A stretch of DNA of 64,000 nucleotides from Terriglobia bacterium (lineage in GTDB: Bacteria; Acidobacteriota; Terriglobia; Terriglobales; Acidobacteriaceae): positions 5,431 to 69,430 of the forward strand of contig JAIQFF010000006.1 of NCBI GenBank assembly GCA_020073395.1, given 5' to 3'. Shown one piece after another: positions 34,914 through 60,067 of the stretch (position 1 is its first letter; every line of letters starts with the position of its first letter). The notes beneath the pieces are model-generated. The model was not told the origin of the DNA. It searched no databases and saw nothing but the letters and a program-made list of their open reading frames with translations. The position numbers and the translations under genes are program-made.

Positions 34914-37469
34914 TTATTCGTAGTGCAACGCGATGTTCGGATCAGTTTGCATGGCCCGCCGGGCCGGGATGTAGCATGCAAGCAGCGCCACGGCAATCAA
35001 CCCGAACGCGGCCGCTGCTATGGTCGTGGGGTCGGACGGCTTTACTCCGAACAGAAAGCTTTGCAAATAGCGGGTCACGGCCAACACTGCGATGAAGCCA
35101 ACCAGCACGCCTGACCCTGAAATCAATGCACCCTGCCGGATCACGAGACGAAGGACATCGCCGCGCTGCGCCCCTAGAGCCAGTCGAATTCCGATCTCTC
35201 GAGTTCGCATGGAAACCTGATAAGAGAGCAATCCGTAGATTCCTACACACGTAACGATCAACGCCAAAACCGCGAACAGGGTCGAAAGATTGGCGATGAG
35301 CTGCTCCTGATAAATGTTCTGGTCGATCTGCTCCGCCTGGGTTTTCATGCCGGTGACTAGAAGATTGCTATCAAAACGGGTTACAGCGTCGCGAATTCCC
35401 GGCATCATTGCCTTCGAGTCCATCGCGGTGCGGACCTCGAAGTAGAAATCCGCATCCCAATTGCCAATTGAGTTGTAAATGGTTGGTTGGATTTCGTCGC
35501 GTACATTAGCGTACTTGGTGTCAGCCACCACGCCGACAATTTCGTCCTCAGGTCCATCCTCATTCTCCCGAAAATGGCTTCCCAGTGGATTTTCCGCTCC
35601 AAATAATCGGCGCGCCAAAGCCTGGTTCACAACGACGCGCGTCGGGACGCTGTTAGAGGGAGGCCCGGAATCCTGCGCACTTAACGTGCGGCCTTCGAGT
35701 AGACGAATGCCCATCGTTTGAAAGAAATTGCCAGCTACCGGAAGTACACCAACGTGGATGGGTCGGCCTGATTGATCTTTGGAAAAAATCTCACCGCCCA
35801 TACCCCCGCCGCTCAAAAGTAAAACTCCCGAGCGGCTGGCTGAAATGACACCCGGAAGAGACGAGAGTCGACCCTGAACGTCGCTATAGAGAGTCTGGAG
35901 GTTTTCCCCCGAACGCTTGCTATAACTGGCGTCAACCTGGAAGACGACGAGGTTTTGAGGATCGAAGCCGATGTTTTCGGCTTTCAAATTGGACAAGGTG
36001 CGCACCAACAACGTCGTCCCCGCAAGAACCAACATGGCGAGCGCCACCTGAACAACAACTAGCGCGCTACCCAGAGAAATCGGGCGTCCGGGTGTACCAG
36101 GCGCTGTCCCCGAGGTTTGTTTGAGTGCAGGAATCAACTCGGGCCGCTTACTGGAAGACGCGGGTGCAAGGCCAAAAGCGATACCGGTAAGAATGGAAAC
36201 CAGTGCGGTAAAGACAAGCACGTGAGCATCGGGACGGACGTCCACCTTCACCGGCAGGTACCAGTTATGCGATAGAAACCCTGCGAGAGCGCTAGCGCCA
36301 AGGTCACCGAGGAGAATTCCAATGGCCCCTCCCGCAACCGACAGAAGCACACTTTCCGTGAGCAACTGGCGGAGGATTCTTCCCCAAGTCGCCCCGAGCG
36401 CAACACGCATCGCCAACTCTTTTTGTCGCGCTTTCGAACGCGCGAGCGTCAGCCCTGCAATGTTGGCGCAAGAGATGAGCAGGACCAGAGCCACCGCAGC
36501 GAACAGCGCAAAAAGGGGCTGAGAGAAATTCTGGCGTAATGTGACCAATCCATGTGCAGAACTTGAGAGTGTGACTCGCGGCGAATCATCGGGTCTGAAC
36601 ATGGCGTCTGGACCATTGGTCGTGGCGGCAGCAAACAGGACGCTGGCGGCTGAAGCAGACTGCATAATACTTATGCCGGGCCTCAGTCGCGCCATCAATT
36701 CGACCCATAAAGCCTTTGCATCCGTCTTCTTCGGCAGACGCGGCTCGACTGCAGCCTGAAAGGCCATGGGCAGCCAGATGTCGGACGGGAGGCCAGGATC
36801 AAGTTCGGGGAAGTCCCCACCGGTGATGCCGATCACCGTGAACAATGTCTTACCCACTAAAACGTCTTTGCCCAGGACAGAGGGATCTTGGCCTAGTTCG
36901 TTCTGCCAAAAACGGTGGCTGACGGCAATGGCAGGCTTAGCCGTATCCGAATCGTCGGTGGGAGCGATGAGGCGGCCAAGTGCCGGATGTGCGCCCAGTA
37001 CAGAGAAGAAATTGCCGGAGACAAGTAGAACCCGCGCATGGCTAGTCTTACCGCCAGAATTCACGGCGAGCTCTGCGGGAAGCGGAACAAACGCTACGAC
37101 ACTTGAAAAAGTGCTGGATTTCTCTTGAAGCTCTTGGAACAGCGGAAAGGAAAATGAGCACCCGTCGGGTTCGAGCGGTGCTTGAGAAATAAGCGCCCGT
37201 CCGTTCCAAAAGCCTCCCCCGTGGGTGCAATTGTCATACGCGAGGGAAGCGGTCGTGTCTGGGATTCGGCGCGCTTTCCATTTCAGGAGCACGAGGCTCT
37301 GCGGATTTTTGATCGGCAGCGTGCGCAGCATGATTGAGTTAATCAGGCTGAAGATGGCAGTATTTGCCCCGATTCCTAGCGCCAGAGTTACGACCGCCAC
37401 GGCGGTAAACACCGGAATCTTGCGCAATTGGCGCACCGCGTAGCGTAGATCTTGAATTAGTACATTCAT
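34914..37469 (-). CDS. ADOP-family permease (duplicated MacB_PCD + FtsX modules), copy 1
   Basis: I moved the start to [40 protein letters not shown]. About 850 aa with two periplasmic-domain/FtsX repeats and a C-terminus ...DPNIALHYE. Confidence 0.9.
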   Translation of the reverse strand: MNVLIQDLRYAVRQLRKIPVFTAVAVVTLALGIGANTAIFSLINSIMLRTLPIKNPQSLVLLKWKARRIPDTTASLAYDNCTHGGGFWNGRALISQAPLEPDGCSFSFPLFQELQEKSSTFSSVVAFVPLPAELAVNSGGKTSHARVLLVSGNFFSVLGAHPALGRLIAPTDDSDTAKPAIAVSHRFWQNELGQDPSVLGKDVLVGKTLFTVIGITGGDFPELDPGLPSDIWLPMAFQAAVEPRLPKKTDAKALWVELMARLRPGISIMQSASAASVLFAAATTNGPDAMFRPDDSPRVTLSSSAHGLVTLRQNFSQPLFALFAAVALVLLISCANIAGLTLARSKARQKELAMRVALGATWGRILRQLLTESVLLSVAGGAIGILLGDLGASALAGFLSHNWYLPVKVDVRPDAHVLVFTALVSILTGIAFGLAPASSSKRPELIPALKQTSGTAPGTPGRPISLGSALVVVQVALAMLVLAGTTLLVRTLSNLKAENIGFDPQNLVVFQVDASYSKRSGENLQTLYSDVQGRLSSLPGVISASRSGVLLLSGGGMGGEIFSKDQSGRPIHVGVLPVAGNFFQTMGIRLLEGRTLSAQDSGPPSNSVPTRVVVNQALARRLFGAENPLGSHFRENEDGPEDEIVGVVADTKYANVRDEIQPTIYNSIGNWDADFYFEVRTAMDSKAMMPGIRDAVTRFDSNLLVTGMKTQAEQIDQNIYQEQLIANLSTLFAVLALIVTCVGIYGLLSYQVSMRTREIGIRLALGAQRGDVLRLVIRQGALISGSGVLVGFIAVLAVTRYLQSFLFGVKPSDPTTIAAAAFGLIAVALLACYIPARRAMQTDPNIALHYE

Positions 37470-37473
37470 GTTC

Positions 37474-39906
37474 CTACTCGTACCGCAGCGCGACCATGGG
37501 GTCGACATTCATCGCCCAACGTGCTGGGATGTAAGCAGCCAGTGCTGCTACCAAAGCCAGTAGAGACGTGAGCAAAGCGAATGTCACAACGTCGATCTGC
37601 ACCACGCCAAAGAGCGCACCTGAAAGCGCGCGGGTCAGCAGCAATGCGAGTACTAAGCCGATGCTGAGACCGATCATGGCCATTTTCAGCGCTCCTCCAA
37701 CCACCAGCCTGAGCACGTCAAGACGCCGCGCTCCCAGCGCTACGCGCACTCCGATTTCGTGAGTTCGTTGGGTGACGGAATAGGCCATCACGGCGAAGAT
37801 CCCGGCCGCCGCCAGCGTGAGCGCGCAGGCAGCAAAAATCAGCATCATATTGGCGGACGACTCGATGCCGCTGAGGCCGTCGGAAACAACCTGCTCCAGG
37901 CTGCGCATGTCATACGCGGGTTGGTCCGCATCCACATCGCGCAATTGCTTGCTGACAGAGCCCGCAAGCGTCAAGGGATCTCCCGACGTGCGCACCACGA
38001 ACGCCGTAGCGGATTCGGGCTGTTGCGCGAACGGAATGTATGCGGTCGGAGCGGGGTCATGGTCTAAGGGAACCGGCTGCACCTCCCCCACTACTCCTAC
38101 AATCGTGCGTAATGGCTGAGCAGCTTCCGGCCGTCCCATCTGGATATGCTTTCCTAGCGGGTTCTGATCCGGCCAATTCTGATGCGCCATCGTCTCACTG
38201 ATGACCGCCACCGGAGGAGCATTAGGTCCGTCCTGATCGGAAAGGAGCCGTCCTTGCCGCAGCGGAACACGCAATGCTGGGAAAAGGCCTGGAGTCACGA
38301 TTTGCGAAATGACTGATGGCCTTTCTCCCGGGGCTGCTGGGGGCCTGCCCTCCGCCGTGAATTCCGTCCAGTTCCATGTCCATCCCGAAGGCAGGCTGGT
38401 CACACACGCCGCAGATTCGACACCCGGCAGGGCCTGAATATTTCGCAGGACCTGTTCGTAGTAACCACGGATGCGATCTTTGTCGCGGTACTTCGCATCC
38501 GGTAACACGACATGAAAGGTAAGAACATGGTTGCGATCAAAGCCCATGTCCTTGGTTGTGAGAGTACGGAATCCCTTCACCATCAAGCCGGCGCCCACGA
38601 GTAGAACCAAAGAAAGGGCGATTTCTGAGATCACCAGCAAAGTACGAAGGCGCCGCCCGCTGGCACTAGCACTCCCACCACGGGTGCCCTCTTTCAGGGT
38701 GTCATTCACGTTAGGACGTGAAAAATGCCAGGCCGGTGCCAGCCCGGCGACGATGCCGGTCACAATGGCCAAGAGCAGTGTGAACCAGAACACTCGCAAA
38801 TCCAGATGCAGGTGTTTCAACCCCGCAACGTGCTCGACGATAAAGGGGGGAAGACTGCGACGCAAAAGGTTGATGCCCCAGGCCGACAACAGAAGTGCTG
38901 CCGCGCTGCCGAGCAGTGCGAGCAGAAGGCTCTCCACCAGCAGCTGCCGTCCCACCTGCCAGCGGCTGGCCCCGAGCGCGGCGCGAAGAGCGATCTCCTT
39001 TTGTCGCCCGGAAGCGCGGGCCAGTTGCAGGTTGGCCACGTTGGCACAGGCCAGCAGGAGAACGAAGACCGCCGCTCCCATCAGCATCATAAGAAATTGT
39101 TGCGAACCGTAGGTGACATCTTCCACCGTATTCTTGACATTGACTCCGTGGCCGGCGTTGGTCCTGGGATGCTGTTGGCCCAGGCTGGCGGCAATCGTCT
39201 CCAGTTTCGCCTGGGCTTGAGATATGGAAACGCTATCCTTCAGCCGTCCAAACACGGTTAAATAGTGGCTCTCGCGGTCTTCTTTGGCGGGGCCGTTCAG
39301 GTCGAGCGGAGTCCAGACCTTCGATCCGGTGGGGAAATCAAAATCTGGAGACGTGATGCCAATGACCGTGAACTTTCGGCCGTTCAAGAGCAATTGCCTG
39401 CCGACTAGTGCAGGATCAGCGCCCAAATGCTGCTGCCAGAATCCGTTGCTGATGACCACCACGGGCGCAACCCCGCCCTGGAAATCTGCGCTCCCGATAT
39501 TGCGGCCCAGTTGTGGAGACATGCCCAGCAACGAAAAGAAGTCGGCAGTTACCTGCGAACCTTCGACATGCTCGGCCACATTGCCGCCAGTCAAATTCGC
39601 GTCCCATCCGCGGACCGCCGCCAGCTGGCTGAATTGCGTGCTCTGCTCGCTCCAGTCGCGAAAATTCGCGGGAGCCGGACTCAGGTGGTTGTCATTCTGC
39701 CTGGGCAGCGTCTCCCAGATTGTGACCATGCGATCCAGACGCGGGAATGGAAACGGCCGCAGCAGCATGGCATTGACCGAATTGAAAATGGTTGTATTTG
39801 CGCCGATACCGAGGGCCAGAGTAATCACTGCCACCGCGGTAAAGCCGGGGCGCTTGCGCAACATGCGGAGCCCGTAACGAACATCCTGCAGCAGTCCAGT
39901 CATCAT
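37474..39906 (-). CDS. ADOP-family permease, copy 2
   Basis: N-terminus [42 protein letters not shown]-terminus ...[10 protein letters not shown]. The stop lies 4 nt before the start of copy 1. Confidence 0.9.
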   Translation of the reverse strand: MMTGLLQDVRYGLRMLRKRPGFTAVAVITLALGIGANTTIFNSVNAMLLRPFPFPRLDRMVTIWETLPRQNDNHLSPAPANFRDWSEQSTQFSQLAAVRGWDANLTGGNVAEHVEGSQVTADFFSLLGMSPQLGRNIGSADFQGGVAPVVVISNGFWQQHLGADPALVGRQLLLNGRKFTVIGITSPDFDFPTGSKVWTPLDLNGPAKEDRESHYLTVFGRLKDSVSISQAQAKLETIAASLGQQHPRTNAGHGVNVKNTVEDVTYGSQQFLMMLMGAAVFVLLLACANVANLQLARASGRQKEIALRAALGASRWQVGRQLLVESLLLALLGSAAALLLSAWGINLLRRSLPPFIVEHVAGLKHLHLDLRVFWFTLLLAIVTGIVAGLAPAWHFSRPNVNDTLKEGTRGGSASASGRRLRTLLVISEIALSLVLLVGAGLMVKGFRTLTTKDMGFDRNHVLTFHVVLPDAKYRDKDRIRGYYEQVLRNIQALPGVESAACVTSLPSGWTWNWTEFTAEGRPPAAPGERPSVISQIVTPGLFPALRVPLRQGRLLSDQDGPNAPPVAVISETMAHQNWPDQNPLGKHIQMGRPEAAQPLRTIVGVVGEVQPVPLDHDPAPTAYIPFAQQPESATAFVVRTSGDPLTLAGSVSKQLRDVDADQPAYDMRSLEQVVSDGLSGIESSANMMLIFAACALTLAAAGIFAVMAYSVTQRTHEIGVRVALGARRLDVLRLVVGGALKMAMIGLSIGLVLALLLTRALSGALFGVVQIDVVTFALLTSLLALVAALAAYIPARWAMNVDPMVALRYE

Positions 39907-39913
39907 TTATTCC

Positions 39914-42343
39914 TCACTCGTAACGCAGAGCCACCATGGGATCGACCTTGGTCGCGCGATAGGCCGGAATGTAACTGGCCATCATCGCGGCCATGAAAAG
40001 CACGACGCACACCCCCGTGAAAGTTGCGGCATCCGTGGGAGCCACGCCAAATAGCAAACTTGCGATCAGCCGCGCAGTGATCAAACCACCCACGATTCCC
40101 AATGCAATTCCGATCAGGGCCAGTTTCAGGCCGCTGTTGACTACCATCTTCAGCAAGTCGCCGCGCTGCGCTCCCAAAGCCATGCGCAAACCCAGCTCGC
40201 GCGAGCGCTCCGCCACGCTGTAGGCCAGAACTCCATAGAGTCCCAATACTGCAAGCAACAGCGCCAAGGCGGAAAATCCGCCGATGAGGTATGCGGGATA
40301 CGACCGCACCAGCATGGTGGGCGAGGTCGAAATGATCTGCGCCATGCTGCTAATTTGGAAAACGGGAGCCTGGGGTTCGAGTTCGTGGATGGATCGAGTG
40401 ACTGCGGCAACTAGTGAACCCGGTTCTTTCCTGGTGCGGATAGCCAGGCTAAAATATGGGTAAGGATCCTGTTCGTAGCAGTCATACACGATGGGTGTCG
40501 GCGGAGCATCCAGGCCGGTAACATTTTCATTGCCCACCACGCCGACGATCTGGACGTAGTGGGGCTCATTCGTGTAGGTGAAGTTGATGCGCTTGCCGAT
40601 CGGATCCTGGTGGGGAAAAACCATGTCCGCCATGGCCTGGTTGACGATTACCACGTGGACCGACTTGTCACGATCCTGCGAATTGAAGAACCGCCCGGCG
40701 CGCAACGGAATGCCCATCACCGAAAAGTAGTTTTGCGTGACCGTGGGAGTATTGGCTTCGTATTCCTGGCCGCCGCTGCTCTTGGGATGTCCCTCCAAGT
40801 CAAAACGAGACGTATTGCCTTTGGCGGACATGGGCACAGTCGTCACTGCCGCCGCTTGTTCGACACCGGGAAGGCTCCTGATTCTGTCCAATAGTTGTTG
40901 CTGGAGGGCCAGCTGTCTGGGTCCGTCTGGATACTTGTTGCCGGGGAGCGCCACTACGCCGGTGAGCAAATTGCGAGTGTCAAATCCGGGATCGGTGTTC
41001 AGCACTCGGTGCAAACTCTTGAGCATCAAACCTGCGCCCACCAGCAGCACTACCGCCAAGGCCATCTCCGAAACCACCAGCACGCTGCGCAGGCGGTGGG
41101 TGGAACCAACTGAACCGCGGCCCGCGGCCTGAAGTTCGTGTTGCAGGTCGGGGCGGAAAGTCTGCAGCAGCGGAGCCAATCCGAACAAGATCCCCGTTAG
41201 CAACGAAATTCCTAGCGCAAACCAAAGCGCACCGCTATGCACTTTGAGTCCCTGAAGCGGCGGCGTGCTCAGCAGGATGTCCGGCGGAAGCAGCGAAAGC
41301 ACAGCCGGCACCGCCCAGTAGGCGGCGAGAACCCCTGCACTGCCTCCCATGAGGGCGAGCAATACACTCTCCGTCAGCAGTTGCCGGGCTATGCGATTCG
41401 ATCGGGCGCCCAGCGCCAAACGAATGGAAATTTCTTTTCTGCGAGGCTGGGACCGCGCCAGCAGGAGTCCGGCCACATTTGCGCAGGTGATGAGCAGCAC
41501 GAATCCGATCGCGGCCATCAATACGACCAGTACCGGCTGCACCTGGCCGACAATCTGCCATCGCAGGTCAACCAACTCTGTGCTCATGCCGGCATTCGAG
41601 TCCGGATACTGCATGGCCAATCGCCGCGAAAGAGTCTGTATCTCGGCTTGCGCCTGCCGAAGGCTCACGCCTGGCTTGAGACGAGCCACGGGATGCAACC
41701 AATAAGCGTTTCGCCTTAAAAAAAATCCGGATATCCGGGGTGACATCCATAAATCCGCCGACTGCGTGGGAGCAAGAGCAAAATTCTTTGGCAGCACCCC
41801 CACTACAGTGGCCGGTTCACCATCGAGTGCCAGCGCCGTGCCGACTACGCCTGGGTTGCCGCCAAATCGCCGCTGCCAGGCGCCGTAGCTCAGCATGACA
41901 GGAAAGTTCTTCTGCAGCTCATCTTCACCGGCCCCGAAAGTTCGCCCTAGAATGGGCTGAACTCCCAAAGTTTCAAAGAAACCAGTGGTCGCCACGGCCA
42001 CCTGGAGTTGTTCAGCACCGTCTTTGCCCGAGAGCGTCACGCTGTTTCGCGAATAGCCGCCGATCTGCGAGAAGACTTTGTTCTCCCGTTTCACATCCAG
42101 ATAATCGGGATAAGAGAACTCCGACTGCTGGAACGAACCCTCGGTGCGCTTCTCCCATATCTGCACCAACTCCTCCGGCCTCTCGTACCCCAGCGGGCGC
42201 AACAGGATGGCATCGAAGACCGTAAATACTGCCGTGGTGGCACCGATTCCCATAGTCAACATGATCAGGATGATCACCGTCAGACCGGGACTCTTCCGCA
42301 ACATGCGTAAGCCATAGGTGAGATCCTGCATCAGAGTTTGCAT
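39914..42343 (-). CDS. ADOP-family permease, copy 3
   Basis: N-terminus MQTLMQDLTYGLRMLRKSPGLT, C-terminus ...[10 protein letters not shown]. Confidence 0.9.
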   Translation of the reverse strand: MQTLMQDLTYGLRMLRKSPGLTVIILIMLTMGIGATTAVFTVFDAILLRPLGYERPEELVQIWEKRTEGSFQQSEFSYPDYLDVKRENKVFSQIGGYSRNSVTLSGKDGAEQLQVAVATTGFFETLGVQPILGRTFGAGEDELQKNFPVMLSYGAWQRRFGGNPGVVGTALALDGEPATVVGVLPKNFALAPTQSADLWMSPRISGFFLRRNAYWLHPVARLKPGVSLRQAQAEIQTLSRRLAMQYPDSNAGMSTELVDLRWQIVGQVQPVLVVLMAAIGFVLLITCANVAGLLLARSQPRRKEISIRLALGARSNRIARQLLTESVLLALMGGSAGVLAAYWAVPAVLSLLPPDILLSTPPLQGLKVHSGALWFALGISLLTGILFGLAPLLQTFRPDLQHELQAAGRGSVGSTHRLRSVLVVSEMALAVVLLVGAGLMLKSLHRVLNTDPGFDTRNLLTGVVALPGNKYPDGPRQLALQQQLLDRIRSLPGVEQAAAVTTVPMSAKGNTSRFDLEGHPKSSGGQEYEANTPTVTQNYFSVMGIPLRAGRFFNSQDRDKSVHVVIVNQAMADMVFPHQDPIGKRINFTYTNEPHYVQIVGVVGNENVTGLDAPPTPIVYDCYEQDPYPYFSLAIRTRKEPGSLVAAVTRSIHELEPQAPVFQISSMAQIISTSPTMLVRSYPAYLIGGFSALALLLAVLGLYGVLAYSVAERSRELGLRMALGAQRGDLLKMVVNSGLKLALIGIALGIVGGLITARLIASLLFGVAPTDAATFTGVCVVLFMAAMMASYIPAYRATKVDPMVALRYE

Positions 42344-42351
42344 AGTTCTCC

Positions 42352-44806
42352 TTACTCGTATCTCAAGGCCACCATGGGATCAACCTTCGCCGCGCGACGC
42401 GCGGGAATGTAGCTGGCAAGCAAGGCCACAGCCAGAAGCAAGAGTGCGGCCTCGGTCAGTGTGGCTGGGTCATTTGGCTTTATTCCAAACAGCAGCGCGC
42501 CAATCCATCGAGCAGCAACCAGCGAACAGAAAGTGCCGGCGACAGCGCCGCCGGCAATCCATACCAGCGTCTGGAACACCATGACTCTGGTGACAGTAGC
42601 CGGGTTCGCGCCCAGCGCCAGACGAATGGCAATTTCCCGGATGCGCTGGCTCACCAGCAAGGAAACCAGGCCGAAGATACCCACTGCCGCGAGAAGCAGG
42701 CCGATCGCGGCAAATAGCGAAAGCAGAGCAGCCGTAAATCGGGGACGCTCCGCGAGCCGATACACGGTTTGACCCAGGGTGCTTGACTCCAGGGGCAACG
42801 TCGGGTCAAGCGCCGCGACGGAGTCTCGTATTTCTTTGGCTACCGTCTGGGGATCAATTGCACTGCGTACCACCATGCTGATGCGCTGAGAGTCTAGATA
42901 ATTGAAGATGCGGTCGTTCGCGCTGTGACTGCGAACTAGGTAATATTCGGGACCTATGTGTCCGCCGAGCCCCTGATTTTGCGTGTTGGCAGTCACACCT
43001 ACGATTCTGAACGTGGCAGCGTCGCGCACTTCGTCGGAACTAAAGTGGATGGTCTTGCCCACCGGGTCCTGGCCGGGAAAGAGGCGTTGAGCCAGGGCTT
43101 GGTTAAGGATCATGGCGTCATACGCTGAGGTGCGGTCCTGTTCCTCAAAGGCCCGTCCGCGCAGCAGAGGAATGCCCAGTACCGAGAAATATTTCGGCGT
43201 CACAGATCTCCAACTCACGATTCCACCAATGCCCTGGTCAGGGCTGAGAGGCGGTTGCCCTTCCGCTTCGAGCGCAACCAACGGCATCGTGCGCGCCGGG
43301 GTCTCAGGGGGGAGCGAGTCACTGAGGGCAGCCGCCGCGACACCGGGCAATTGCTGGAGTTTGTTCCAGTTGCTCGAAGAATGCAAGGCGCTGTGCCGGT
43401 TGAGCATATTTTTCCTGCCCAAGCGTGATCGCCGCCGTAACAATATTTTGCGTATTCATCCCCAACGGCTGGACCTCGAGGTTGCGAAGAGTCCGCAGGA
43501 ACAGCAGCGCACCCGTAACCAGAATAAGAGTCATGCAAACCTGAGCAGCCATCAGAGCCTTTCGCAGGTTGCTTCGCCGTGTGCCGGCCACAGTCATGGC
43601 CACCAGAGCTTCCGGGCGTGGCTTTTCCAGCGCGGGTAAAGTGCCAAAAACAACTCCGGCAGCGCTCGACGACAGAAGCGCGAAGATCAGGGCCCTGACG
43701 TTTACCATCGCCTCCGGCAAGCGTGGTATTCCTGCCGGGGAAAGAGCGACGAAGCCATGAACAATCAGGTAAGCAAGCCCACATCCGATTGCGCCTCCAA
43801 CCAGTGCGAGCAGCATGCTTTCTGTGAGCCTTTGCTGAAACAGGCGAAGGCGGGCGGCGCCGAGCGCAGACCGGACCGCAAGCTCGTGTCGCCGCCCCGT
43901 GCTGCGGGCAAATACGAGGTTGGCCACATTGGCGCAGGCGATTAGCAGGCCCGCAAGGGCCGAGACCAGCAGGAACCAGGCCGCGCGACGGGAGTCATGA
44001 ATCTGCAAATCGCGTATGGAGCGGACCTGAAGCCGCAGTTCTTTTCGAAACGGAGGCGGCGCGGATTCCACAAAGGTCCGAAACAAAAGCGGCAACTGCG
44101 CTACCGCCGCGTCGATGCTGACGCCTGGTTTCAGGCGTCCGTACACGCGGACCGTCGGTCCCATCAAATTACGTTGCACAATGGATTCATCGAGGGCCTC
44201 GGGCACGACCAGCCCTGTACCGGCCAGCGTCGGAAATTCAAAGTCACGCGGCAACACTCCCAAGACCCGTGTTGGCTTTCCATCAACCGAAATCGTGCGA
44301 TCAACAATGCCGCGATCGCCTCCAAACCGGCTTTGCCATATTCCATACGAGAGCAATGCGACTTTGGGAGAATCGGGGCGATCCTCTTCCGGCGTGAAGT
44401 TCCGGCCCAGGATGGGTTGCACACCGAAGGTAGACAGGAAGGTGGACGCTACGGACGCGCAGCTTGATCGGACGGGGCGGTCATCGGTGAGATCACAATC
44501 GTTCACGCCAGTGGACGACGTGAAGTTCGCGAACGGAGTTTGATCGCGCCTCCACGACAGATAATTCGCCGCAAAGAGAAACTCGCCGTCAATAATAGGA
44601 GCGATGACTCCGACGGAAACCAACTGCTCAGCGTGGGGATAGCGCAAGCCGCGGAAGAGCGCGCCGTCCACCAAACTGAACATCGCAGTAGTTGCGCCGA
44701 TCCCTAGCGACAATGTGAACACGGCGACCGAAGTGAATCCCGGGCTCTTGCGCAGTTGCCGCAGAGCGTAGCGAATGTCCTGGAGCAGGCCGGTCATCCT
44801 GTTCAT
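42352..44806 (-). pseudogene. ADOP-family permease, copy 4, interrupted by a frameshift near 43360
   Basis: The N-terminal ORF (44806-43319, [22 protein letters not shown]...AFFEQLEQ) and the C-terminal ORF (43443-42352, ...LQQLPGVAAAAL...[10 protein letters not shown]) together cover one ADOP gene in two frames. The frames cross at GAACAAACTCCAG (plus-strand TTT at 43360-43362). Confidence 0.75.
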
Positions 44807-44813
44807 CTCCTCC

Positions 44814-51724: not shown

Positions 51725-52084
51725 TCCATCTCCTCGCAACTTTCAATCCATTCGACACCCGCCGGTAAGTGTCTGCGAGAACAGGGAAATACGGGCAGCC
51801 CTGCGACCTGGAACGACGCTGATTTGTCCGCTAGCGAACTTGACTGTCCATTTGCGAACACCAAAAGCGACAGCCTTCGCTGTCCGATCTCCCGGCACGG
51901 TTCAGTCAAAGCTGAGAACTGGGAACTCGTATCTGGTAACTAGGCAAGCTGAGAAACCGCGTCGCCCGGCAATCGTTTAAACATTCCGTCCCGCGAGAGA
52001 GTGGAGCAGAGTATGAAACCAGCCCGGGGTAATCAAGTCAATCTGAGGGGCTTCAGTGGCCACGCCTTTGTCCCGTTGCGCCAG

Positions 52085-54622
52085 TCACTCCGTCCGCAGC
52101 GCGCGGATAGGTTCCAGAGCTGCTGCTTTGCGGGCGGGCAGCACCGTAGCGATCAACGCAGCCAGGCTCAGTACAAGCGTCGTTACCAGCAAAATATCCG
52201 GAGCGTAAGGCTTCACTCCAAACAATTGCGTCGTCATCGCGTACCCCGCCAGAATCGTTGCAGGAATGCCGATCCCGAGCCCGACTCCAATTTGTACAAA
52301 CGCGCCCTTCAGCACCAGCCTCAGAACATTCAACCGGTCGGCACCGAGCGCCATGCGGATTCCGATTTCGCTGGTACGCCGTTCGACCGAGTATGCGGTC
52401 ACGCCATAGAGACCGACGGAGGCCAACACCAGCGCCAGCAATCCAAACAATGATGTCAGCCTCGCCAGCATCTGGTTCTGCGAGAAATTGCCATCCACTT
52501 GAGCCGCAAAGCTCATGAAGTCGATCAACGCAAGGTCAGGACTCACCTGGGCGAAAGCACGCCGAACCTGAGGTTCCAGTCCTGGAACCAGGCCCTGCGT
52601 TTGCAGCACGGCGGTGTTCAGAAAGTGGTTACTATCTTCGAAGGCCTTAAATCGCGGGTCATCGTACACCACGTTTTGGGCCTCGGGCAGGAAGAACATG
52701 GGTGGAATCTTGTGGGTTGCGTCCCGGTATTGCGTATCCTCGGTGACGCCGACGATTTCAAAGCTTCCAGCATACTTCTGGTCCAGATCGCCGAAGTGTT
52801 TTCCGATAGGGTCTTCATCTTTGAAGAAATGCCTGGCAAATGTCTGATTAACGACGGCTATTTTCCGGGTAGAGGCGGTGTCCTGCTCGGTGATGGTGCG
52901 GCCTTTCACTATTTTGGTTCCGATGCTCTCAAAGTAGCCGTCGGTGACCCTGAGCCAGGAGGTCTGATTCTGACTGCTGCCCGCCGGAGGTGGCGCTTGC
53001 CCTTCGATGTAAATGGTTTCACCCCAATTGTTGCCTTCCATCGGAGTGTAGAGGCCAAAGCTCACGCGGTTCACGCCCGGAATTGCCGCCAGATTGTCAC
53101 GGAGCTGCCGGTAAAGCGCGGGCAATCGCTCCTGCTTATATCCAGCCATCGATGGATCCAGATGCAGGATGTAGCGGTTCGCAACTTCAAATCCGAAATT
53201 TTGGCCCTGCATGTTACCTAAACTCCGCGTCAGTAATCCCGCGGCGCACAGCAGAACCAGGGATAGAGCGGCCTGGGCCACAACCAGCGTCTTTTGCGTC
53301 CAGCCTGCTCCATGCGCCGTCGAACGGTGCGCTCCGCGCAAAGCATCGGCGGGATCGACGTGCGCCATCATCCACGCCGGCGCGACTCCAAACAGGATTC
53401 CGGTCAGAAGAGAAGCTCCGAAGGTAAAAGCCAGGACCGGCAACGAAGGCATGGCACTGATGGCAACATGCTGGTCGTGAAATGCCAGCCGCAGGATGAG
53501 GCGCGTGCAGGCGAACGCCAACCCCACTCCCACGATTCCGCCGAGCAATGCAAGAAAGGTGCTCTCGGTCATTACCTGTGCCAACTGCCGCCACCGGGGC
53601 GCGCCCAGCGCGGTACGCACGGAAGTGTTCTGCTGCCGGCTGACAGCCCGCACCAGCATCAGGTTCGCCACATTAGCGCAAGCGATCAGCAACACAAAAC
53701 CGGAAACCCACATCAGCAGGTGGAGCCCCGACTGGTACTCGTCGCGCATCATCTGCACCCCTGCTCCACCCGGAGACAGATGCAGAGTTTGTTTCGGCAC
53801 TAGTTCCCGCTCACCAGGTTGCAGTTTGCTGTCGGGACTCAACAGCCACTGTCTGAGCTCCAACTGCATTTGGGTTTCAATGCTTTTGGGATCACCCCCC
53901 GGCGCGAGCCGCCCTATGATGTCGAGCCAATCCGACTCCCCAAATTGCAGCAGATTGCCCGGACCATCGATCATCGCCTCCGCATTCAGAGGAAACCAGA
54001 AAGCGGGCGAAGCCTCCATGCGATCGCCGTAGAATTTCGGCGGCGCCACGCCAATCACGGTAAAGGGAAAGCCGTTAAACGTGAAGCTCGCCCCAATCAC
54101 CGTCGGATCCAAACCGTATTTCTGTTGCCAGGTCGCGTAGCTCATCACCACGACCGGCTCCACTCCCTTGCGATCATCCGCTTGGGTAAACATCCGCCCG
54201 GCGTATGCACCCACTCCAAACATCGAGAAATAGTTTCCCGAAACGTATTGGGTGCGCATTGACTCTGCAGGCTGGTTGCTCGCGTTCCGCCGGACTCCCA
54301 TGAGACCGCGCCCGGCCTGGAAGGCGGCCAGTTCGGTGAACCCGTGCGTCCCGTCGCGGAAGGTTTTGTACTTGTCGTAGGAGAAAAGCGACCAACTGTC
54401 CTGCAAGCCACCGTTGACGCAACAGTTCTCGTTGTCCCCGATGCGGATCAGTTCGCTGGGCTTGGCCACCGGCAGGGACTTCAACAACACGGCGTGCACC
54501 AGGGTGAAGATTGCCGTGGTCGCACCAATCCCGAGGGCAAGCGTCAACACCGCCGTTGCTGTGAAGCCGGGGGCATGAGCAAATTGCCTCATCGCGTAGC
54601 GGACATCGTCTATGAATTGCAT
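52085..54622 (-). CDS. ADOP-family permease, copy 7 (more divergent)
   Basis: N-terminus [40 protein letters not shown]-terminus ...LEPIRALRTE. Confidence 0.9.
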   Translation of the reverse strand: MQFIDDVRYAMRQFAHAPGFTATAVLTLALGIGATTAIFTLVHAVLLKSLPVAKPSELIRIGDNENCCVNGGLQDSWSLFSYDKYKTFRDGTHGFTELAAFQAGRGLMGVRRNASNQPAESMRTQYVSGNYFSMFGVGAYAGRMFTQADDRKGVEPVVVMSYATWQQKYGLDPTVIGASFTFNGFPFTVIGVAPPKFYGDRMEASPAFWFPLNAEAMIDGPGNLLQFGESDWLDIIGRLAPGGDPKSIETQMQLELRQWLLSPDSKLQPGERELVPKQTLHLSPGGAGVQMMRDEYQSGLHLLMWVSGFVLLIACANVANLMLVRAVSRQQNTSVRTALGAPRWRQLAQVMTESTFLALLGGIVGVGLAFACTRLILRLAFHDQHVAISAMPSLPVLAFTFGASLLTGILFGVAPAWMMAHVDPADALRGAHRSTAHGAGWTQKTLVVAQAALSLVLLCAAGLLTRSLGNMQGQNFGFEVANRYILHLDPSMAGYKQERLPALYRQLRDNLAAIPGVNRVSFGLYTPMEGNNWGETIYIEGQAPPPAGSSQNQTSWLRVTDGYFESIGTKIVKGRTITEQDTASTRKIAVVNQTFARHFFKDEDPIGKHFGDLDQKYAGSFEIVGVTEDTQYRDATHKIPPMFFLPEAQNVVYDDPRFKAFEDSNHFLNTAVLQTQGLVPGLEPQVRRAFAQVSPDLALIDFMSFAAQVDGNFSQNQMLARLTSLFGLLALVLASVGLYGVTAYSVERRTSEIGIRMALGADRLNVLRLVLKGAFVQIGVGLGIGIPATILAGYAMTTQLFGVKPYAPDILLVTTLVLSLAALIATVLPARKAAALEPIRALRTE

Positions 54623-54837
54623 GGCGCTTCTGATCGTCTATACGGATGGGCCTCATTCACGGTTCCAGACCGGGCAGGGACAGAGAGAGACTTCAACTCA
54701 GCCCGTGCGGGTTTGACGCTCGTTATAGCCCTTCGTGAGCAACTCTCGGGGAGAAGGCGTCGCCATTCACGCGCCGACACCAGGCATGGAACCTAAACAC
54801 CGGTTCTGGCCGTTCGGAATCTCGCCTTGGGGACTCT

Positions 54838-54957
54838 CTACTCGTAGCGCAGCGCTGTCATCGGGTCCACTTGCTGGCCCGGCCGCCACCAAGCTTAACA
54901 GAAGGGTTACGGCCAACAGAATGAGCGGGTCACGACCCCATCCCATTCAATTTCCAC
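54838..54957 (-). pseudogene. Decayed 3'-terminal remnant of an ADOP gene
   Basis: The minus-strand reading ends ...VDPMTALRYE* (stop at 54838-54840). Upstream fragments LNGMGS / DPLILLAVTLLLSLVAAGPAS lie in shifted frames with internal stops. The terminal 33 nt match the 3' end of copy 9 (57632-57664) at 29 of 33 positions. Confidence 0.7.
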
Positions 54958-55179
54958 GGGGAGTAAGCGTCTGCTGCACGACTGGCCGTCCTTTTGTGCT
55001 CCGCAGTGTCCACCAGCGAACAGTGCTGTCGGGGTTGTCCGAATCGATTAGCAGGACAATCCGGCTTGCTCACAATCATCTTAGACAAACGTCAATAGCT
55101 GCGGTCATCGGTCACCTGCCAACACGAAAGCTTGCTTTCATCGAGTTCAAGTGGCAACATTCAGCCGCGAGTGTATGCA

Positions 55180-57585
55180 ATGGAAACGTTGCTTCAGGAT
55201 CTGCGCCAGGAGTTTCGCATGTTGCGGAAGGCGCCCGGCTTCACGGCTGTGGCCGTGATCACCATAGCGCTTGGGATTGGAGCAAACACGGCGATATTCA
55301 GCGTTGTGAATGCCGTCCTGTTCAATCCGCTGCCCCTGCATCAACCCGGCCAGATCGTGCGGTTGCAGGAATTCCATCAACGCCCGACGAATGTCACGGG
55401 AGCGACATTGCGCGATGTGCGTGAGCGCAATCGCGTGTTTTCTCAAGTCGCCGCTTACCGCATTTTTTCGCAAAACTTGAGCGACCCGCGGCAAGCAGTG
55501 CCGCCGGAGCAGATCGACACCGCATTCGTTTCCCAGGATTTCTTGCCGCTACTGGCGATGACGCCGTTCGTGGGGACGGGGTTCACCGTGGAGCAGTTTC
55601 ACAGAAATGCTGGAGGCGCAGTGATCCTCAGCTACGGACTCTGGCAGCATCATTTTGGGTCGGACCGCGAAATCGTCGGCAAGATGATCACCCTCCACGG
55701 AGTGCCTCACCTGGTTGCGGGTGTAATGCCGATGGGATTCTCGTTTCCGGAGGCGGTGCAGGCGTGGGCGCCACTCACTGACGACCTGGCGTTCCGAGAG
55801 AACCGCCGCGCCCATCTGTTTACCACCCTGGCGCGGGTCAAACCGGGCGTCTCAATGGAGGTTGTGCGTGCCGATTTGGAAGCAATCTCCGTCCAGATCC
55901 AGCGGGAAAATCAGAACGTCGATCCTGGCTTCACCTTTCACGCGGAGCGGCTGCAGGACAACCTGGTTTCAAGCGTTCGCCCTACTTTGCTGATCTTGAT
56001 GAGTGCGGTTGGCTTCGTGCTCTTGATTGCATGCGCAAACGTCGCGAACCTGCTTCTCACGCGGGCGGTCGTACGACAGAAGGAGATTGCGATACGTTCG
56101 GCGTTGGGTGCGACACGCTTTCGCCTAGCACGGCAATTCTTGACTGAGAGCGTTTTACTTGGCCTTCTCGGCGGAACCGCCGGATGTCTGCTCGGGCTGT
56201 GGGCGGTGAAAGTCTTATATGCCGTGTACCCCGGCGCCATCCCTCGCTTGGCCTCTCCGGCGATTAACGTGCAAGTCCTGCTCTTCGTATTTGCGGTCTC
56301 ATTGCTGGCCTCGATGTTGTCCGGAAGCATTCCTGCCATGCAACCTCCAGCGCTGAATTTGCAGGTGCAGCTTGCAGAGGGTGGCCGCACCACTGGGACG
56401 TTGCGCCATCAGCGCGTTCGCTCATCCCTGGTGATCACGGAAGTGGCGCTCGCCATGATGTTGCTCGCTGCGGCGGGTTTGCTTATCCGAAGTTTCATTC
56501 TGTTGCAGCGGGTTGATCCTGGTTTTGACAGCTCCCATCTGGCCGTTGTTCGTCTGTCACTGCCAGACTCCCGGTACCCTGAACTCCCCGAGCGGACACA
56601 GTTTATGAATTCGGTTCTGGAACGCCTTCACGCATTGCCTGGAGTTCAAACCGTTGCCGCCGCCGGGACTCTGCCCTTTGATTCAGTGCCTGAGACCGAC
56701 CTTGAGCTCGAGGGTCACGCCTACGAACCAGAGGACGAACCGAGCGCGGAGATTTTGACCGTCAGTCCCGAGTACTTTGGCACCATGGGAATTCGCCTGC
56801 TGGCTGGAAGAACGTTTACCCCGCAGGACATTCCGGGGCACCCAACCGCTTTGGTGATTAATCAAACCATGGCGCAACGTTTCTGGCCCGGGGAAAGCGC
56901 GTTGGGAAAACGGGTGGTGATGAAAGATTGGGGACCGCCACTGCCCGGCCAGATTGTGGGCGTGGTGTCGGATGTAAAACAGGATTCGCTCGAAGCCGCT
57001 ACCCAGCCCGCGATTTACTACAGCTTCGCGCAGTTCTCGCAAGGTACGCTGACCACGTACCTCATTGCACGATCCACCCCGGATCCGCTCCGCCTCGCGC
57101 CTGCCATTCGGGACCAGATCTGGTCGGTTGATCGGGATCAGCCCGTGAGCGTGTTAGCCATGGACCAAATCGTCTCTGGGTCGCTGGAGCGCCGCCGGTT
57201 TGTCCTCACCTTGCTGGGCACCTTCGCTGCACTTGCTCTGGTTCTCGCGGTAGTGGGCATTTACGGTGTCATTGCGTATTCGGTGGGCCAGCAGACGCAT
57301 GAATTCGGCATACGCATGGCGCTAGGCGCCCAGCGGCACCAGCTTCTGCTCATGGTCATGCAACAGACCGCCCGGAAGCTGGTGGTGGGCCTAGCCATCG
57401 GAGTTGGAGGAGCCCTGATTCTGACTCGATTGATGGGAAGCTTGCTGTTTGGAATCAGCGCGACCGATCCGCTGGCATTTTCGTTGGCGGCGGCGATTCT
57501 GCTGATTGCCGCCCTGATCGCCAGCTGGATTCCCGCGAGGCGGGCGGCCACGGTCAATCCCATGTTGGCGCTGCGGAACGAGTAG
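55180..57585 (+). CDS. ADOP-family permease, copy 8 (only plus-strand copy)
   Basis: I moved the start to [47 protein letters not shown] (ATG at 55180). C-terminus ...[10 protein letters not shown]. Confidence 0.9.
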
Positions 57586-57631
57586 CGTGTCGCTGGCCCG
57601 GACGCATTTAGAATCCCGCCTCGAAGATCTT

Positions 57632-60067
57632 CTACTCACAGCGCAGCGCTGTCATCGGATCAACGGCCAAGGCCCGTAGCGATGGGACCAGACATGCCAG
57701 AGCGGCAACTATAATCACCAACAACGAAACGGCCAGCACCATCAGCGGATCGTGGACGCCGTTCTGGACCCAGCGTGTGATCATGCTACCCAGCCCGAAG
57801 CTGAGCGCCAGGCCGGCAGCAAGCCCGATCGCCACACTCGCACCTGCAGACCACACCACGATCCGCAGCACATCGGCCCGTTGCGCGCCCAAAGCCATGC
57901 GGATGCCAAACTCGCCCGTCCGTTGCACCACGCTATAGGACACGACGCTGTACAGGCCCACCCCGGCCAACGCCAGGGCCAGGCCCGAGAACGCAGCAAA
58001 CAAGATGGAGATCAGGCGCGAAATGGCAAATTCCGGCTCGCGCCTGATCCACCCCTCGAGATCCTGTACATCCGAGTCTATCTGCTGATCAGGATTGACG
58101 GCGGCGATCTCCTTGCGGACGCCGTGCAGCAGGGACAGCGGTTCACCCTGGGTCCGAATCAGAATCTGTGTTCCCATAAACATGTTGACGGTGTACGGAA
58201 AATAAAGTGCCGGCAATATGGGTTTGTCCAAGCCATCGTCGAGCGCGTCGCCCACGACCCCAATGATCTGCAACCATCCGTCACTCCCGGTTGCATTCAG
58301 CCGGTATGGCGGCTGGCCGGTCAAGCGAGGCATGCGCACGGAGTGGTTCAGGACATCTTCGCCGGGAAAGTAACGGCGGACGAATGTCTGGTTGACCAGC
58401 GCAAGCGTAGCGCCGCGCGAGACTTCGCTCTCCTCCCATAGGCGTCCTTCCACCAGCGGAATCCGCAGGATGGTGAAATATTCCGGGCTCACAAAGTTTG
58501 CCCGCGCCTCCTGCTGCTCAGCCGCAGTCTTGCCCAGGATTTCGAAAGGTTGAGTCCAGCCGTTGCTCGGCGGCGTCGCGTTGGTCGAAATGCCCGAGGA
58601 AACCACTCCGGGAATGGCAGCGACGCGCTGGCGAAGCTGCGTGAAATATGCTGCGCGCTCCGCCCAGCCGTTGAGAGTATTTTGGTGGATGGGGATGCCG
58701 ACCGACATCACGTGGTGGGGATCGTAACCGAGCGGCCTTCGCATCATGCGGGAAAATCCCTGGATGGCTGCGCCCGCGCCGGTGAGCAGCAATAAGGTCA
58801 GGGCAATCTGGCCGGCAATCAGTCCGGTGTGCATGCGCTTGCCTCGGACGCTCCCGGCCATTTTGTGCGTGCCGGCCTGGATGACGTGATTGATCTCCCG
58901 CCGCGCCGACTCCAGCGCGGGGAAGATCCCAAAGAGCACGCCCGTCAAGACTGCCAGGCTCACACTGAAAAGTAATACCGGCAGATTCACATGGAAATCG
59001 GCTTCGTGGGGGAAAGAGTATTCCGGCAGCCGGGCCACGATGAATCCCAGCGCCTGGTACGCCAGCACCACGCCCAGGCCCGCGCCTGTCAAAGACAGCA
59101 GCAGCGACTCGGTCAGTAGTTGGCGCACAATTCGCAAGCGGCTTGCTCCCACCGCCGAGCGCACCGCCAATTCATGCTGGCGGGCGGTGCCCCGCGCCAG
59201 CAGCAGAATCGAAACATTGGCACACCCAATTGCCAACAGCAAAGCCACAGCGCCGAAGAGCAAATAAAGCGTGCCCCGGAGGTCGCGCACATAAAACTCA
59301 CCCATTCTTCGAAGCACGATTCGATATTGTGGCGGGTAAGTATTCGGCCTCTCCTTTTCGAATTGTTGGAGCAGAGGGAGAAGCTCCGCTTCGGCGGCTT
59401 CGATACTGACGCCGGTCCTCAACTTCAGATTCGCGTCGTAGGTTAAGTCCTGGGCCTGCGACATCTTAAGCGGCAGATAAACATCCCCATCCATCCAGGT
59501 AAAGCGGGACGGCAGGACTCCCAGAATGGTGTAGTCCTTGTACACGAGCTGGATATTTTTTCCGACAATCCCTGGATCGCTGTTGTAGTGCCGCCGCCAG
59601 AAGTTGTAACTCAGCACCGCCACCGGTTGTGGGTCCTGCAGGTCGGGTGCATCCGAGGGCAGGAAGTAGCGACCGAGAATCGCCGGCATCCCAAAATATT
59701 GGAACGCATTTCCGGTGAAATACACGGCATAGAGGTTTTCCGGGACATCGTTCCCGGTGATGACCAGGTCCCACCGCTGCATGGCGATCACGTCTTCGAC
59801 TGCACCCACCTGCCGCAGTTGACGAACCTGCGGCCCGGTGAAGCCGGGGGAGCCCTCGTGGCCAGCCTTATCGATAGTGTCGATCTGGCAGACTCTGTCG
59901 AACCCGGCATAGGGCCAGGCGTTGAGCACCGCGCTGTAGATGACGCTGAAGACCGAAACCGTCGCGCCAATCCCCAGCGCCAGAGACAGGACCGCAGTCA
60001 GGGAGAAGCCAGGAGTCCTCGCCATCTGGCGAAATGCAAAGCGCAAGTCCTGCAACAGACTCTGCAT
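57632..60067 (-). CDS. ADOP-family permease, copy 9
   Basis: N-terminus MQSLLQDLRFAFRQMARTPGFSLTAVLSLALGIGATVSVF, C-terminus ...VDPMTALRCE. Confidence 0.9.
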   Translation of the reverse strand: MQSLLQDLRFAFRQMARTPGFSLTAVLSLALGIGATVSVFSVIYSAVLNAWPYAGFDRVCQIDTIDKAGHEGSPGFTGPQVRQLRQVGAVEDVIAMQRWDLVITGNDVPENLYAVYFTGNAFQYFGMPAILGRYFLPSDAPDLQDPQPVAVLSYNFWRRHYNSDPGIVGKNIQLVYKDYTILGVLPSRFTWMDGDVYLPLKMSQAQDLTYDANLKLRTGVSIEAAEAELLPLLQQFEKERPNTYPPQYRIVLRRMGEFYVRDLRGTLYLLFGAVALLLAIGCANVSILLLARGTARQHELAVRSAVGASRLRIVRQLLTESLLLSLTGAGLGVVLAYQALGFIVARLPEYSFPHEADFHVNLPVLLFSVSLAVLTGVLFGIFPALESARREINHVIQAGTHKMAGSVRGKRMHTGLIAGQIALTLLLLTGAGAAIQGFSRMMRRPLGYDPHHVMSVGIPIHQNTLNGWAERAAYFTQLRQRVAAIPGVVSSGISTNATPPSNGWTQPFEILGKTAAEQQEARANFVSPEYFTILRIPLVEGRLWEESEVSRGATLALVNQTFVRRYFPGEDVLNHSVRMPRLTGQPPYRLNATGSDGWLQIIGVVGDALDDGLDKPILPALYFPYTVNMFMGTQILIRTQGEPLSLLHGVRKEIAAVNPDQQIDSDVQDLEGWIRREPEFAISRLISILFAAFSGLALALAGVGLYSVVSYSVVQRTGEFGIRMALGAQRADVLRIVVWSAGASVAIGLAAGLALSFGLGSMITRWVQNGVHDPLMVLAVSLLVIIVAALACLVPSLRALAVDPMTALRCE

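Follow-up and report, generated by a model that had tools for sequence, protein, structure and literature searches.

Nine ancient ADOP permease paralogues and a conserved adaptor, ATPase and TolC operon in a Terriglobia genome: candidate alternative modules of one transport machine

The subject of this report is a cluster of permease genes in a 64,000-nucleotide stretch of DNA ("the window") from a Terriglobia bacterium, an acidobacterium of peat and sediment (contig JAIQFF010000006.1 of GenBank assembly GCA_020073395.1, a metagenome-assembled genome (MAG) of 5.5 Mb in 311 contigs). An earlier note, made from the sequence alone, had described nine paralogous open reading frames (ORFs) and a remnant packed between positions 34914 and 60067. 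In an NCBIfam scan eight intact ORFs were assigned to TIGR03434, the ADOP ('Acidobacterial duplicated orphan permease') family, with scores of 762.7-996 bits at a cut-off of 622.3. The ninth copy, A4, is frameshifted; the window thus holds nine copies, as the note had it, of which only eight are intact, plus one 3' remnant. No further ADOP copies were found in the window by tblastn with all copies. All copies lie on the minus strand except A8:

34914-37469, minus: A1, 851 aa from MNVLIQDL; TIGR03434 819 bits; the longest ORF extends to 37508
37474-39906, minus: A2, 810 aa; TIGR03434 948 bits; Pfam two MacB_PCD and two FtsX
39914-42343, minus: A3, 809 aa; TIGR03434 947 bits
42352-44806, minus: A4, frameshifted; ORFs 43319-44806 (N-terminal half) and 42352-43443 (C-terminal half)
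44814-47234, minus: A5, 806 aa; TIGR03434 996 bits
47240-49687, minus: A6, 815 aa; TIGR03434 876 bits; start overlaps the NBD2 stop (ATGA)
52085-54622, minus: A7, 845 aa; TIGR03434 866 bits; probably its own unit upstream of the operon
54817-54870, minus: ADOP 3'-end remnant, VDPMTALRYE* and downstream flank
55180-57585, plus: A8, 801 aa; TIGR03434 899 bits; divergent from A7, convergent with A9
57632-60067, minus: A9, the most divergent copy, 811 aa; TIGR03434 763 bits

Each ADOP contains two MacB_PCD and two FtsX domains and no ATPase domain, as judged by Pfam and NCBIfam. The remnant that the note had spotted between A7 and A8 is real: positions 54870-54838 (-) encode VDPMTALRYE*, and the 54 nt at 54817-54870 match the 3' end and flank of A9 with 80% identity. 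Of the 10 full-length ADOPs of the genome as a whole, 8 belong to this cluster. An ADOP C-terminal fragment, 67% identical to A5 over 122 aa, lies at positions 130-519 (+) of the contig (G000:C279), about 5 kb ahead of the window start; with this fragment at its very start, the contig opens inside yet another ADOP gene.

Six of the copies, A6 to A1, lie between two ABC (ATP-binding cassette) ATPase genes in an operon whose other genes, hereafter the frame, are the following, given in the direction of reading:

50462-51724, minus: MacA/HlyD-type periplasmic adaptor, first operon gene; NCBIfam RND_mfp, DarC-type; Pfam HlyD_3, HlyD_D23; the ORF opens at 51739, with the likely ATG at 51724
49684-50409, minus: NBD2, stand-alone MacB/LolD/DarD-type ABC ATPase heading the array; NCBIfam DarD 4e-72, LolD, MacB nucleotide-binding domain (NBD); the longest ORF extends to 50469
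34180-34887, minus: NBD1, stand-alone MacB/LolD/DarD-type ABC ATPase closing the array; NCBIfam DarD 3.9e-70, FtsE, MacB NBD
32279-34183, minus: TolC-family outer-membrane factor; Pfam OEP in two stretches, 7e-41; start overlaps the NBD1 stop (ATGA)
30860-32275, minus: sigma-54-dependent (NtrC-type) response regulator; NCBIfam PEP-CTERM-box/NtrC/AtoC-type, E 1e-110 to 1e-114, scores below the equivalog cut-offs
29446-30870, minus: sensor histidine kinase, last co-directional gene; NCBIfam histidine-kinase matches; overlaps the regulator by 11 nt

On the minus strand the order is therefore adaptor, NBD2, A6, A5, A4, A3, A2, A1, NBD1, TolC, sigma-54 regulator, kinase, all co-directional, and the spacing ranges from overlaps of 4 nt and 11 nt up to gaps of 52 nt. 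The array is joined tightly to both ATPase genes: the A6 start overlaps the NBD2 stop, and 26 nt separate the end of A1 from NBD1. At the five ADOP-ADOP junctions the stop codon is fused to a Shine-Dalgarno-like GGA; the junction reads TACGAGT(G/A)AGGA in four of the five and TACGAGTAGGAA at A2-A1. NBD1 and NBD2 are 42% identical to each other and both retain Walker A, the signature motif and Walker B. Their nearest solved relatives are 5XU1 (a pneumococcal MacAB-like pump), MJ0796, LolD and the MacB ATPases, and for NBD2 the best are 5XU1_A, MJ0796 and LolD.

A7, A8, A9 and the remnant are separate units situated just upstream of the adaptor gene. Between the A7 stop and the adaptor gene, at 51884-51866 (-), the sequence GACAGCGAAGGCTGTC makes a terminator-like hairpin with a T-rich tail behind it. 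Its position after A7 suggests that A7 would be a transcription unit apart from the operon. Genes for PadR-type regulators beside the copies were also considered and discarded, since the intergenic spaces are too short for them.

The two A4 reading frames abut at ...FFEQLEQ / LQQLPGV, and the halves match TIGR03434 positions 1-483 (454.8 bits) and 482-803 (324.4 bits). Contigs from four public metagenomes were aligned on the gene. In three independent metagenomes from different studies (one wetland, two peat), contigs ~99% identical to the window carry an extra TC after 43361, and with TC inserted A4 becomes an uninterrupted 818-aa ORF. The fourth contig, X1, from the likely source sample and a separate Logan assembly at a depth of ~10, agrees with the window without gaps. 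An assembly error is therefore unlikely, as a separate assembly shows the same sequence and three other samples are intact. We conclude that a 2-bp deletion specific to this strain has inactivated A4, and that the gene, otherwise intact, was lost very recently.

At the protein level the nine copies are 28-42% identical in pairwise comparison, and this identity is distributed unevenly. Columns of the alignment are 58-68% identical over the first 40 residues and 72% over the last 10, compared with 13-40% in the periplasmic stretches, and the mean is 25.9% for the periplasmic domains versus 44.6% for the transmembrane (TM) and cytoplasmic parts. The description of conserved ends and strongly divergent periplasmic segments in the earlier note is thus borne out. 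The shared N-terminal block is present as it had been described, and the C-terminal VDPM(V/T)ALR(Y/C)E, said there to be shared by most copies, is exact in six of nine, with variants in A1, A7 and A8. The hydropathy profile of the nine copies has eight peaks.

At the nucleotide level the shared ends are only 60-77% identical between copies, in line with the many synonymous differences that the note had pointed out, and no long near-identical repeats or conversion tracts were found among the copies at the DNA level. Recent amplification and recent gene conversion are rejected on these grounds. The note had also singled out A5 and A8 as nearly identical over their first ~45 residues and hence the closest pair. 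They are the top pair over the first ~47 residues, although the identity there, 83%, falls short of near identity; over the full length A5-A8 (41.7%) is in a near-tie with A5-A3 (42.0%) and A5-A2 (41.3%), and the two are not sisters in the tree, where A5 groups with A2-type copies. A5 and A8 are accordingly not a clear closest pair, and they are not a recent inverted duplicate. There is no sign of domain swapping between copies either, since the identity matrices of the periplasmic domains and of the remainder correlate (rho 0.60).

The copies were compared with the syntenic regions of eight congeneric genomes, and 54 full-length ADOPs were placed in a tree. Six copies, A2, A3, A5, A7, A8 and A9, fall with full support into orthologue groups of their own, whose members are 82-95% identical to the window copy. 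A2 has intact orthologues (88%) in G014, G017 and G018 and split ORFs (83-90%) in G001, G002 and G011; A3 has orthologues in five congeners (82-87%), and orthologues of A7, A8 and A9 are 87-95%, 86-88% and 86-90% identical. The remaining copies are sparser: an A1 orthologue was found in G003 only (66%), that of A4 in G001 (92-93%, fragmented assembly), and those of A6 in G003 (77%) and, as split ORFs, in G002 (86-89%). Since orthologues are 82-95% identical and paralogues 28-42%, the duplications predate the genus, and by a wide margin.

Synonymous divergence (dS) from congeners is mostly 0.5-1.0 (0.3-1.0 overall), for frame genes likewise. The dN/dS ratio (ω) is 0.07-0.16 for the ADOPs, 0.18-0.22 for A1 and A6 and 0.01-0.07 for the flanking frame genes; by domain it is 0.11-0.12 for periplasmic parts and ~0.10 for TM blocks. 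Every periplasmic domain is thus under purifying selection, and diversifying selection on these domains is rejected at the genus time-scale, as their ω is the same as that of the TM parts. The middles are divergent through age and not through fast present-day evolution, and each one is preserved. The earlier note had inferred that the copies are old and maintained, and two of the analyses it had proposed, dN/dS and a phylogeny with orthologues, both uphold this.

Several of the congeneric assemblies deserve a comment. In G002 and G017 the splitting of genes into two ORFs affects TolC, the regulator and the kinase as well as ADOPs, and in G001 many ADOP ORFs are split while the frame genes are intact. 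We do not accept the split ADOP ORFs of these three genomes as pseudogenes, given that the splits extend beyond ADOPs in G002 and G017 and are many in G001. The three assemblies consist of few contigs and may be error-prone long-read assemblies with indel errors.

The structure of A5 was modelled with AlphaFold2 on an alignment of 78 sequences (predicted local distance difference test 88.8, predicted template-modelling score 0.82). The model has eight TM helices and two periplasmic domains and is a direct fusion of two MacB-type units, in which the following elements are predicted:

Residues 4-17: amphipathic N-helix
Residues 19-48: TM1
Residues 59-252: periplasmic domain 1
Residues 262-293: TM2
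Residues 295-303: coupling helix 1
Residues 308-385: TM3 and TM4
Residues 386-402: short cytoplasmic helix/linker between TM4 and TM5
Residues 403-437: TM5
Residues 448-665: periplasmic domain 2
Residues 675-709: TM6
Residues 711-719: coupling helix 2
Residues 724-795: TM7 and TM8
Residues 799-805: C-terminal helix

As can be seen, the features of a type VII (MacB-type) unit are all found: four TM helices, of which TM1 and TM2 enclose a large extracytoplasmic domain and TM2 and TM3 a coupling helix, and a cytoplasmic helix at the C-terminus. With this model Foldseek returned E. coli YbbP (9GE6) as the top match, over the whole length (E 7e-19, template-modelling score 0.46), followed by MacB (5GKO/5LIL/5NIK), the 5XU1 permease, LolC/E, YtrF, BceB (template-modelling score 0.31-0.34, weak) and HrtB; by phmmer MacB was matched at 6e-18. 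The nine copies are ancient ADOP paralogues, each a single-chain fusion of two MacB-type half-permeases.

Among the 78 ADOPs the mean pairwise identity is 0.72 for coupling helix 2, 0.69 for the C-terminal helix, 0.64 for TM1 and 0.61 for both the N-helix and coupling helix 1, as against 0.28-0.30 for the periplasmic domains; TM3-TM8 are 33-46% identical, compared with 61-72% for the conserved elements, TM2 among them. The amphipathic N-helix of MacB runs on to the NBD, which is also contacted by the major and minor coupling helices (PMC5985334). Since the conserved elements of ADOPs correspond to those that contact the ATPase in MacB, the conserved ends (the N-terminal amphipathic helix and the C-terminal helix) are, by this analogy, most simply read as putative docking elements for a common ATPase.

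We then asked how constant the frame and its permeases are. All eight congeners have the frame, with proteins 90-99% identical: NBD2 94-99%, NBD1 94-98% (ω 0.02-0.04), adaptor 92-98%, TolC 90-96%, regulator 92-98%; the kinase is 83-97% identical. The interval between NBD2 and NBD1, which we call the slot, holds 4-7 ADOPs in these genomes, of types that differ between genomes. Where types are shared (A6, A5, A4, A3, A2, A1), they stand in the same relative order, a pattern consistent with differential loss and gain.

When species-representative genomes were scanned with NBD2, 80 Terriglobia loci were retrieved at 83-99% identity, each taken with up to 10 kb of flank on either side. The string adaptor > NBD2 > [ADOP]n > NBD1 > TolC > regulator > kinase recurs in them. 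The slot number n is 0 in 8 loci, 1 in 9, 2 in 10, 3 in 7 and at least 4 in 35, and 11 of the 80 leave the 10-kb flank at n = 1 to 3. The adaptor gene heads the frame in 80 of 80 loci, at least one full-length ADOP lies in the DNA around NBD2 in 76, and a TolC-family gene follows the array in all 34 loci whose DNA reaches the array end, except L068. The median identity to the window proteins is 90% for NBD2, 86% for NBD1, 81% for the adaptor, 76% for TolC, 79% for the regulator and 64% for the kinase, which is syntenic in 20 of the 80. These loci contain 243 full-length ADOPs, whose best match among A1-A9 is 41% identical in the median; ten ADOPs sampled from related loci scored 746-994 bits, all above the TIGR03434 cut-off. 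ADOPs are also found outside the slot in some Terriglobia MAGs, upstream of the adaptor in L039 (three in a row) and L032 (one) and downstream of the kinase in L067, so that the position is not fixed.

In the sister family, NBD2 is 72-76% identical to that of the window. Four genomes of this family contain adaptor-NBD2-NBD1-TolC-regulator with no permease gene in the frame, two carry one ADOP immediately upstream of the adaptor, and another has one ADOP where NBD1 and TolC would stand. These genomes are nonetheless rich in ADOPs, which form a large paralogous family in Acidobacteriota, with at least 15-22 in each; one of them, G020 (3.3 Mb, 98% complete, 20 contigs), encodes 35 full-length ADOPs and eight MacB/LolD-like ATPase genes, and the only ADOP gene there that adjoins an ATPase gene is the copy just upstream of the frame. 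Among 31 related genomes, an NBD2 orthologue (E < 1e-95) is present in 24 of the 25 with ADOPs, the exception being 83% complete, and is missing from all six ADOP-less genomes (best match ~1e-66 to 1e-71).

Taken with moderate confidence, these observations point to ADOPs being alternative permease modules of one type VII ABC tripartite machine with a shared engine encoded around them. The engine would consist of the MacA-like adaptor, NBD2 with or without NBD1 and the TolC-like duct, together with the sigma-54 regulator and the kinase. One ADOP would dock the ATPase pair via its N-terminal helix, two coupling helices and C-terminal helix; closure driven by ATP would be transmitted to the two divergent periplasmic domains (mechanotransmission). 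A substrate from the periplasm or the outer leaflet would be caught by these domains and driven into the adaptor-TolC duct, and the substrates would differ from one ADOP to another. That the frame is 76-90% conserved while the permease set turns over fits one engine serving many alternative permeases; we infer that the ATPases are physically shared, that efflux runs through TolC and that the permeases are specialised for different substrates.

The earlier note had pictured a repertoire of periplasmic domains, specific for substrates or ligands, on a constant transmembrane chassis. The repertoire stands in so far as ancient, maintained copies with a periplasmic ω of 0.11-0.12 fit specialised domains. 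The chassis has to be amended: the TM bundle as a whole is not constant, although TM1, TM2, the N-helix, the two coupling helices and the C-terminal helix are, and the constant part is mainly the adaptor, two ATPases and TolC encoded in trans (90-99% conserved in the genus, 76-90% across the 80 species).

Several observations weigh against alternative modules on a shared engine. NBD1 is missing from 4 of the 80 frames, so that a heterodimeric ATPase pair is not obligatory, and the helix after TM4 of the first half, which answers to the minor coupling helix, shows no conservation (0.30). Outside the operon, with no ATPase gene adjoining, lie A7-A9 and, elsewhere in the genome, three or four more copies. 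Individual copies are dispensable, as A4 is broken in this strain and the arrays of different species have gained or lost copies. Lastly, the genomes compared are kin, and the phyletic counts overstate independence: they amount to at least two independent events, not 31.

A further step, which we propose only tentatively and would sooner expect to fail than to hold, is that all ADOPs of a cell (up to 35) compete for one engine. Substrate range would then be combinatorial, set by the permeases present and expressed; the kinase and the sigma-54 regulator would read the load on the engine in the manner of Bce-type flux sensing, and the slot would be an evolvable cassette site.

Two alternatives deserve weighing, both of which we regard as unlikely. 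The first is a redundant birth-and-death array, in which the copies are overlapping isoforms of one pump permease with no distinct substrates and persist by dosage, drift and tandem duplication and loss. The slot copy number, which varies from 0 to at least 7 between species, the loss of A4 in this strain only, the decayed remnant between A7 and A8, and the correlation of the periplasmic and chassis matrices, with no targeted domain swapping, are all what such an array would produce. On the other hand, redundant copies of this age are expected to be lost or homogenised, and what we see are paralogues at 28-42% kept as distinct orthologue groups at 82-91% identity, a periplasmic ω as low as that of the TM parts, and no conversion tracts.

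The second, which we judge similarly improbable, is by analogy with LolCDE, YbbAP-TesA, FtsEX and BceAB-BceS: a type VII machine that would serve not efflux but mechanotransmission for extraction of lipids or lipoproteins from the inner membrane, activation of a periplasmic enzyme or signalling to the kinase. The adaptor and outer-membrane factor are the signature of tripartite export (PMC5985334), and their genes, the adaptor at every one of the 80 loci and TolC after all the completed arrays but that of L068, argue for efflux. A non-efflux role is favoured by the fold, for the best full-length match is YbbP, a component of the lipid-extraction complex YbbAP-TesA (PMC12646458), and LolC/E, BceB and HrtB match as well. 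It would also agree with the kinase and sigma-54 regulator being fixed members of the frame, with the four frames devoid of NBD1 and with one congener-order genome lacking TolC.

That ADOPs are true orphans, passive scaffolds or receptors that act without an ABC ATPase and lie between ATPase genes by accident, is very improbable: most sister-family ADOPs and three or four in this genome do have no neighbouring ATPase gene, but 76 of the 80 loci with an NBD2 orthologue hold a full-length ADOP near it, ADOP presence tracks the NBD2 orthologue in 30 of 31 genomes, a frame devoid of permease would be useless unless the permease is supplied in trans, and the best-conserved ADOP parts are the cytoplasmic coupling elements.

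Possible regulatory elements were noted at two places. A sigma-54-like element, TGGTATCTGAATTGCT, at 60127-60112 (-) ends ~45 nt before the A9 start codon; it is identical in G014, and a variant, TGGCTCGCGAATTGCC, is present in G011. In the whole window there are 43 sigma-54-like matches versus 40.6 expected by chance, that is, no excess. A GG-N10-GC element, TGGATTGAAAGTTGCG, is located just upstream of the adaptor gene at 51751-51736 (-); counterparts that match better (TGGCTCGACAGTTGCG and TGGAGCCCCAGTTGCG) occur in congeners as well as at ~30 of the 80 species loci. Since TGGATTGAAAGTTGCG is only ~12 nt before the likely adaptor ATG, which is too close, a promoter role is doubtful. Elsewhere in the window, a 422-aa ORF followed by two ORFs of ~1040 aa each occupies 17611-25130 (+). 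Beyond A9, at 60300-63998 (+), NCBIfam and Pfam identify genes for an HD-GYP-type protein, a KdpD-N/USP protein and a KdpD-N/USP-CBS-MgtE fusion leaving the window; these genes have no bearing on the ADOP question.

As an ADOP expansion the cluster is ordinary. Paralogous expansion is already known and defines TIGR03434, whose members share the same length of ~800 aa, two MacB_PCD and two FtsX domains and a large paralogous family, and nine old paralogues with conserved ends are typical of it. The interest lies in what the context says about how the family works. The family name has "orphan" in it, a word which, in the TIGRFAMs description of TIGR03434, presumably means that no ABC ATPase gene is fused or adjacent; here, in contrast, six copies are situated between two ABC ATPase genes in an adaptor/TolC operon. 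A6 and A1 directly adjoin such genes, so that the word does not describe the operon, while it does apply to the copies at C181, C117 and C119 and to most of those in G020.

Clusters of ADOPs have been described before. On genomic island 43 of Psychroflexus torquis, a 42-kb cluster contains ~10 paralogous ADOPs (Feng et al. 2014, PMC3914696), along with other transporter genes, some with ATP-binding regions; the proteins are abundant, and efflux was suggested (PMC3914696). That cluster differs in belonging to another phylum and to a horizontally acquired island, and the paper contains no conserved frame or slot, no cross-species comparison and no proposal of a shared engine. Dyadobacter genomes have 28-33 ADOP copies (PMC11573002). 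In our literature search no paper was found that proposes a shared engine for ADOPs or describes a conserved slot.

Among known machines, MacAB-TolC (5NIK, 5LIL, 5GKO) resembles the locus in its 4-TM unit with a Porter/Sabre-type periplasmic domain between TM1 and TM2, in the amphipathic N-helix, major coupling helix and C-terminal helix, and in the genes for a MacA-type adaptor and a TolC partner. MacB, however, is a homodimeric permease with the ATPase fused to its N-terminus, whereas the ADOP locus encodes fused pseudo-dimer permeases, two separate ATPases (42% identical) and many permeases per adaptor, ATPase pair and duct. YbbAP-TesA (9GE6/9GE7) (PMC12646458) shares with ADOPs the fused double MacB-type permease, two periplasmic domains and a separate ATPase, YbbA. 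YbbP differs in having ten TM helices, including two extra linking ones (PMC5985334), compared with eight in the ADOP model, and in sequence, the identity being 14-16%; YbbAP is moreover one permease with a lipid hydrolase, with no adaptor/TolC operon or permease array. The BceAB-type module has 10 TM helices and a single extracellular domain and is paired with an intramembrane-sensing kinase, in contrast to the eight TM helices and two periplasmic domains of ADOPs, which have a kinase gene adjacent. The sharing of one energising module by many substrate-specific membrane components has been experimentally demonstrated for group II energy-coupling factor (ECF) transporters, with their many S-components, and for MsiK/MsmK-type ATPases. 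The logic would be the same at the ADOP locus, where sharing is proposed by analogy; the folds and the direction of transport are unrelated.

ADOPs constitute one of the largest paralogous families in Acidobacteriota and occur in Bacteroidota as well, and the conserved adaptor/two-ATPase/TolC operon holds permeases in this genus or none in the sister family, with much greater variation in the permease set than in the engine. If such sharing holds, dominant bacteria of soil, peat and sediment would use a modular system of envelope export or extrusion, with a bearing on tolerance or secretion of antimicrobials, lipids and metabolites, and type VII ABC transporters would gain a new principle of organisation, in which one motor serves many fused permeases. 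Should all ADOPs of a cell compete for one engine, type VII ABC systems would have their first multi-permease architecture with a shared motor, and a function would be assigned to a paralogous family that is among the largest uncharacterised ones of soil bacteria.

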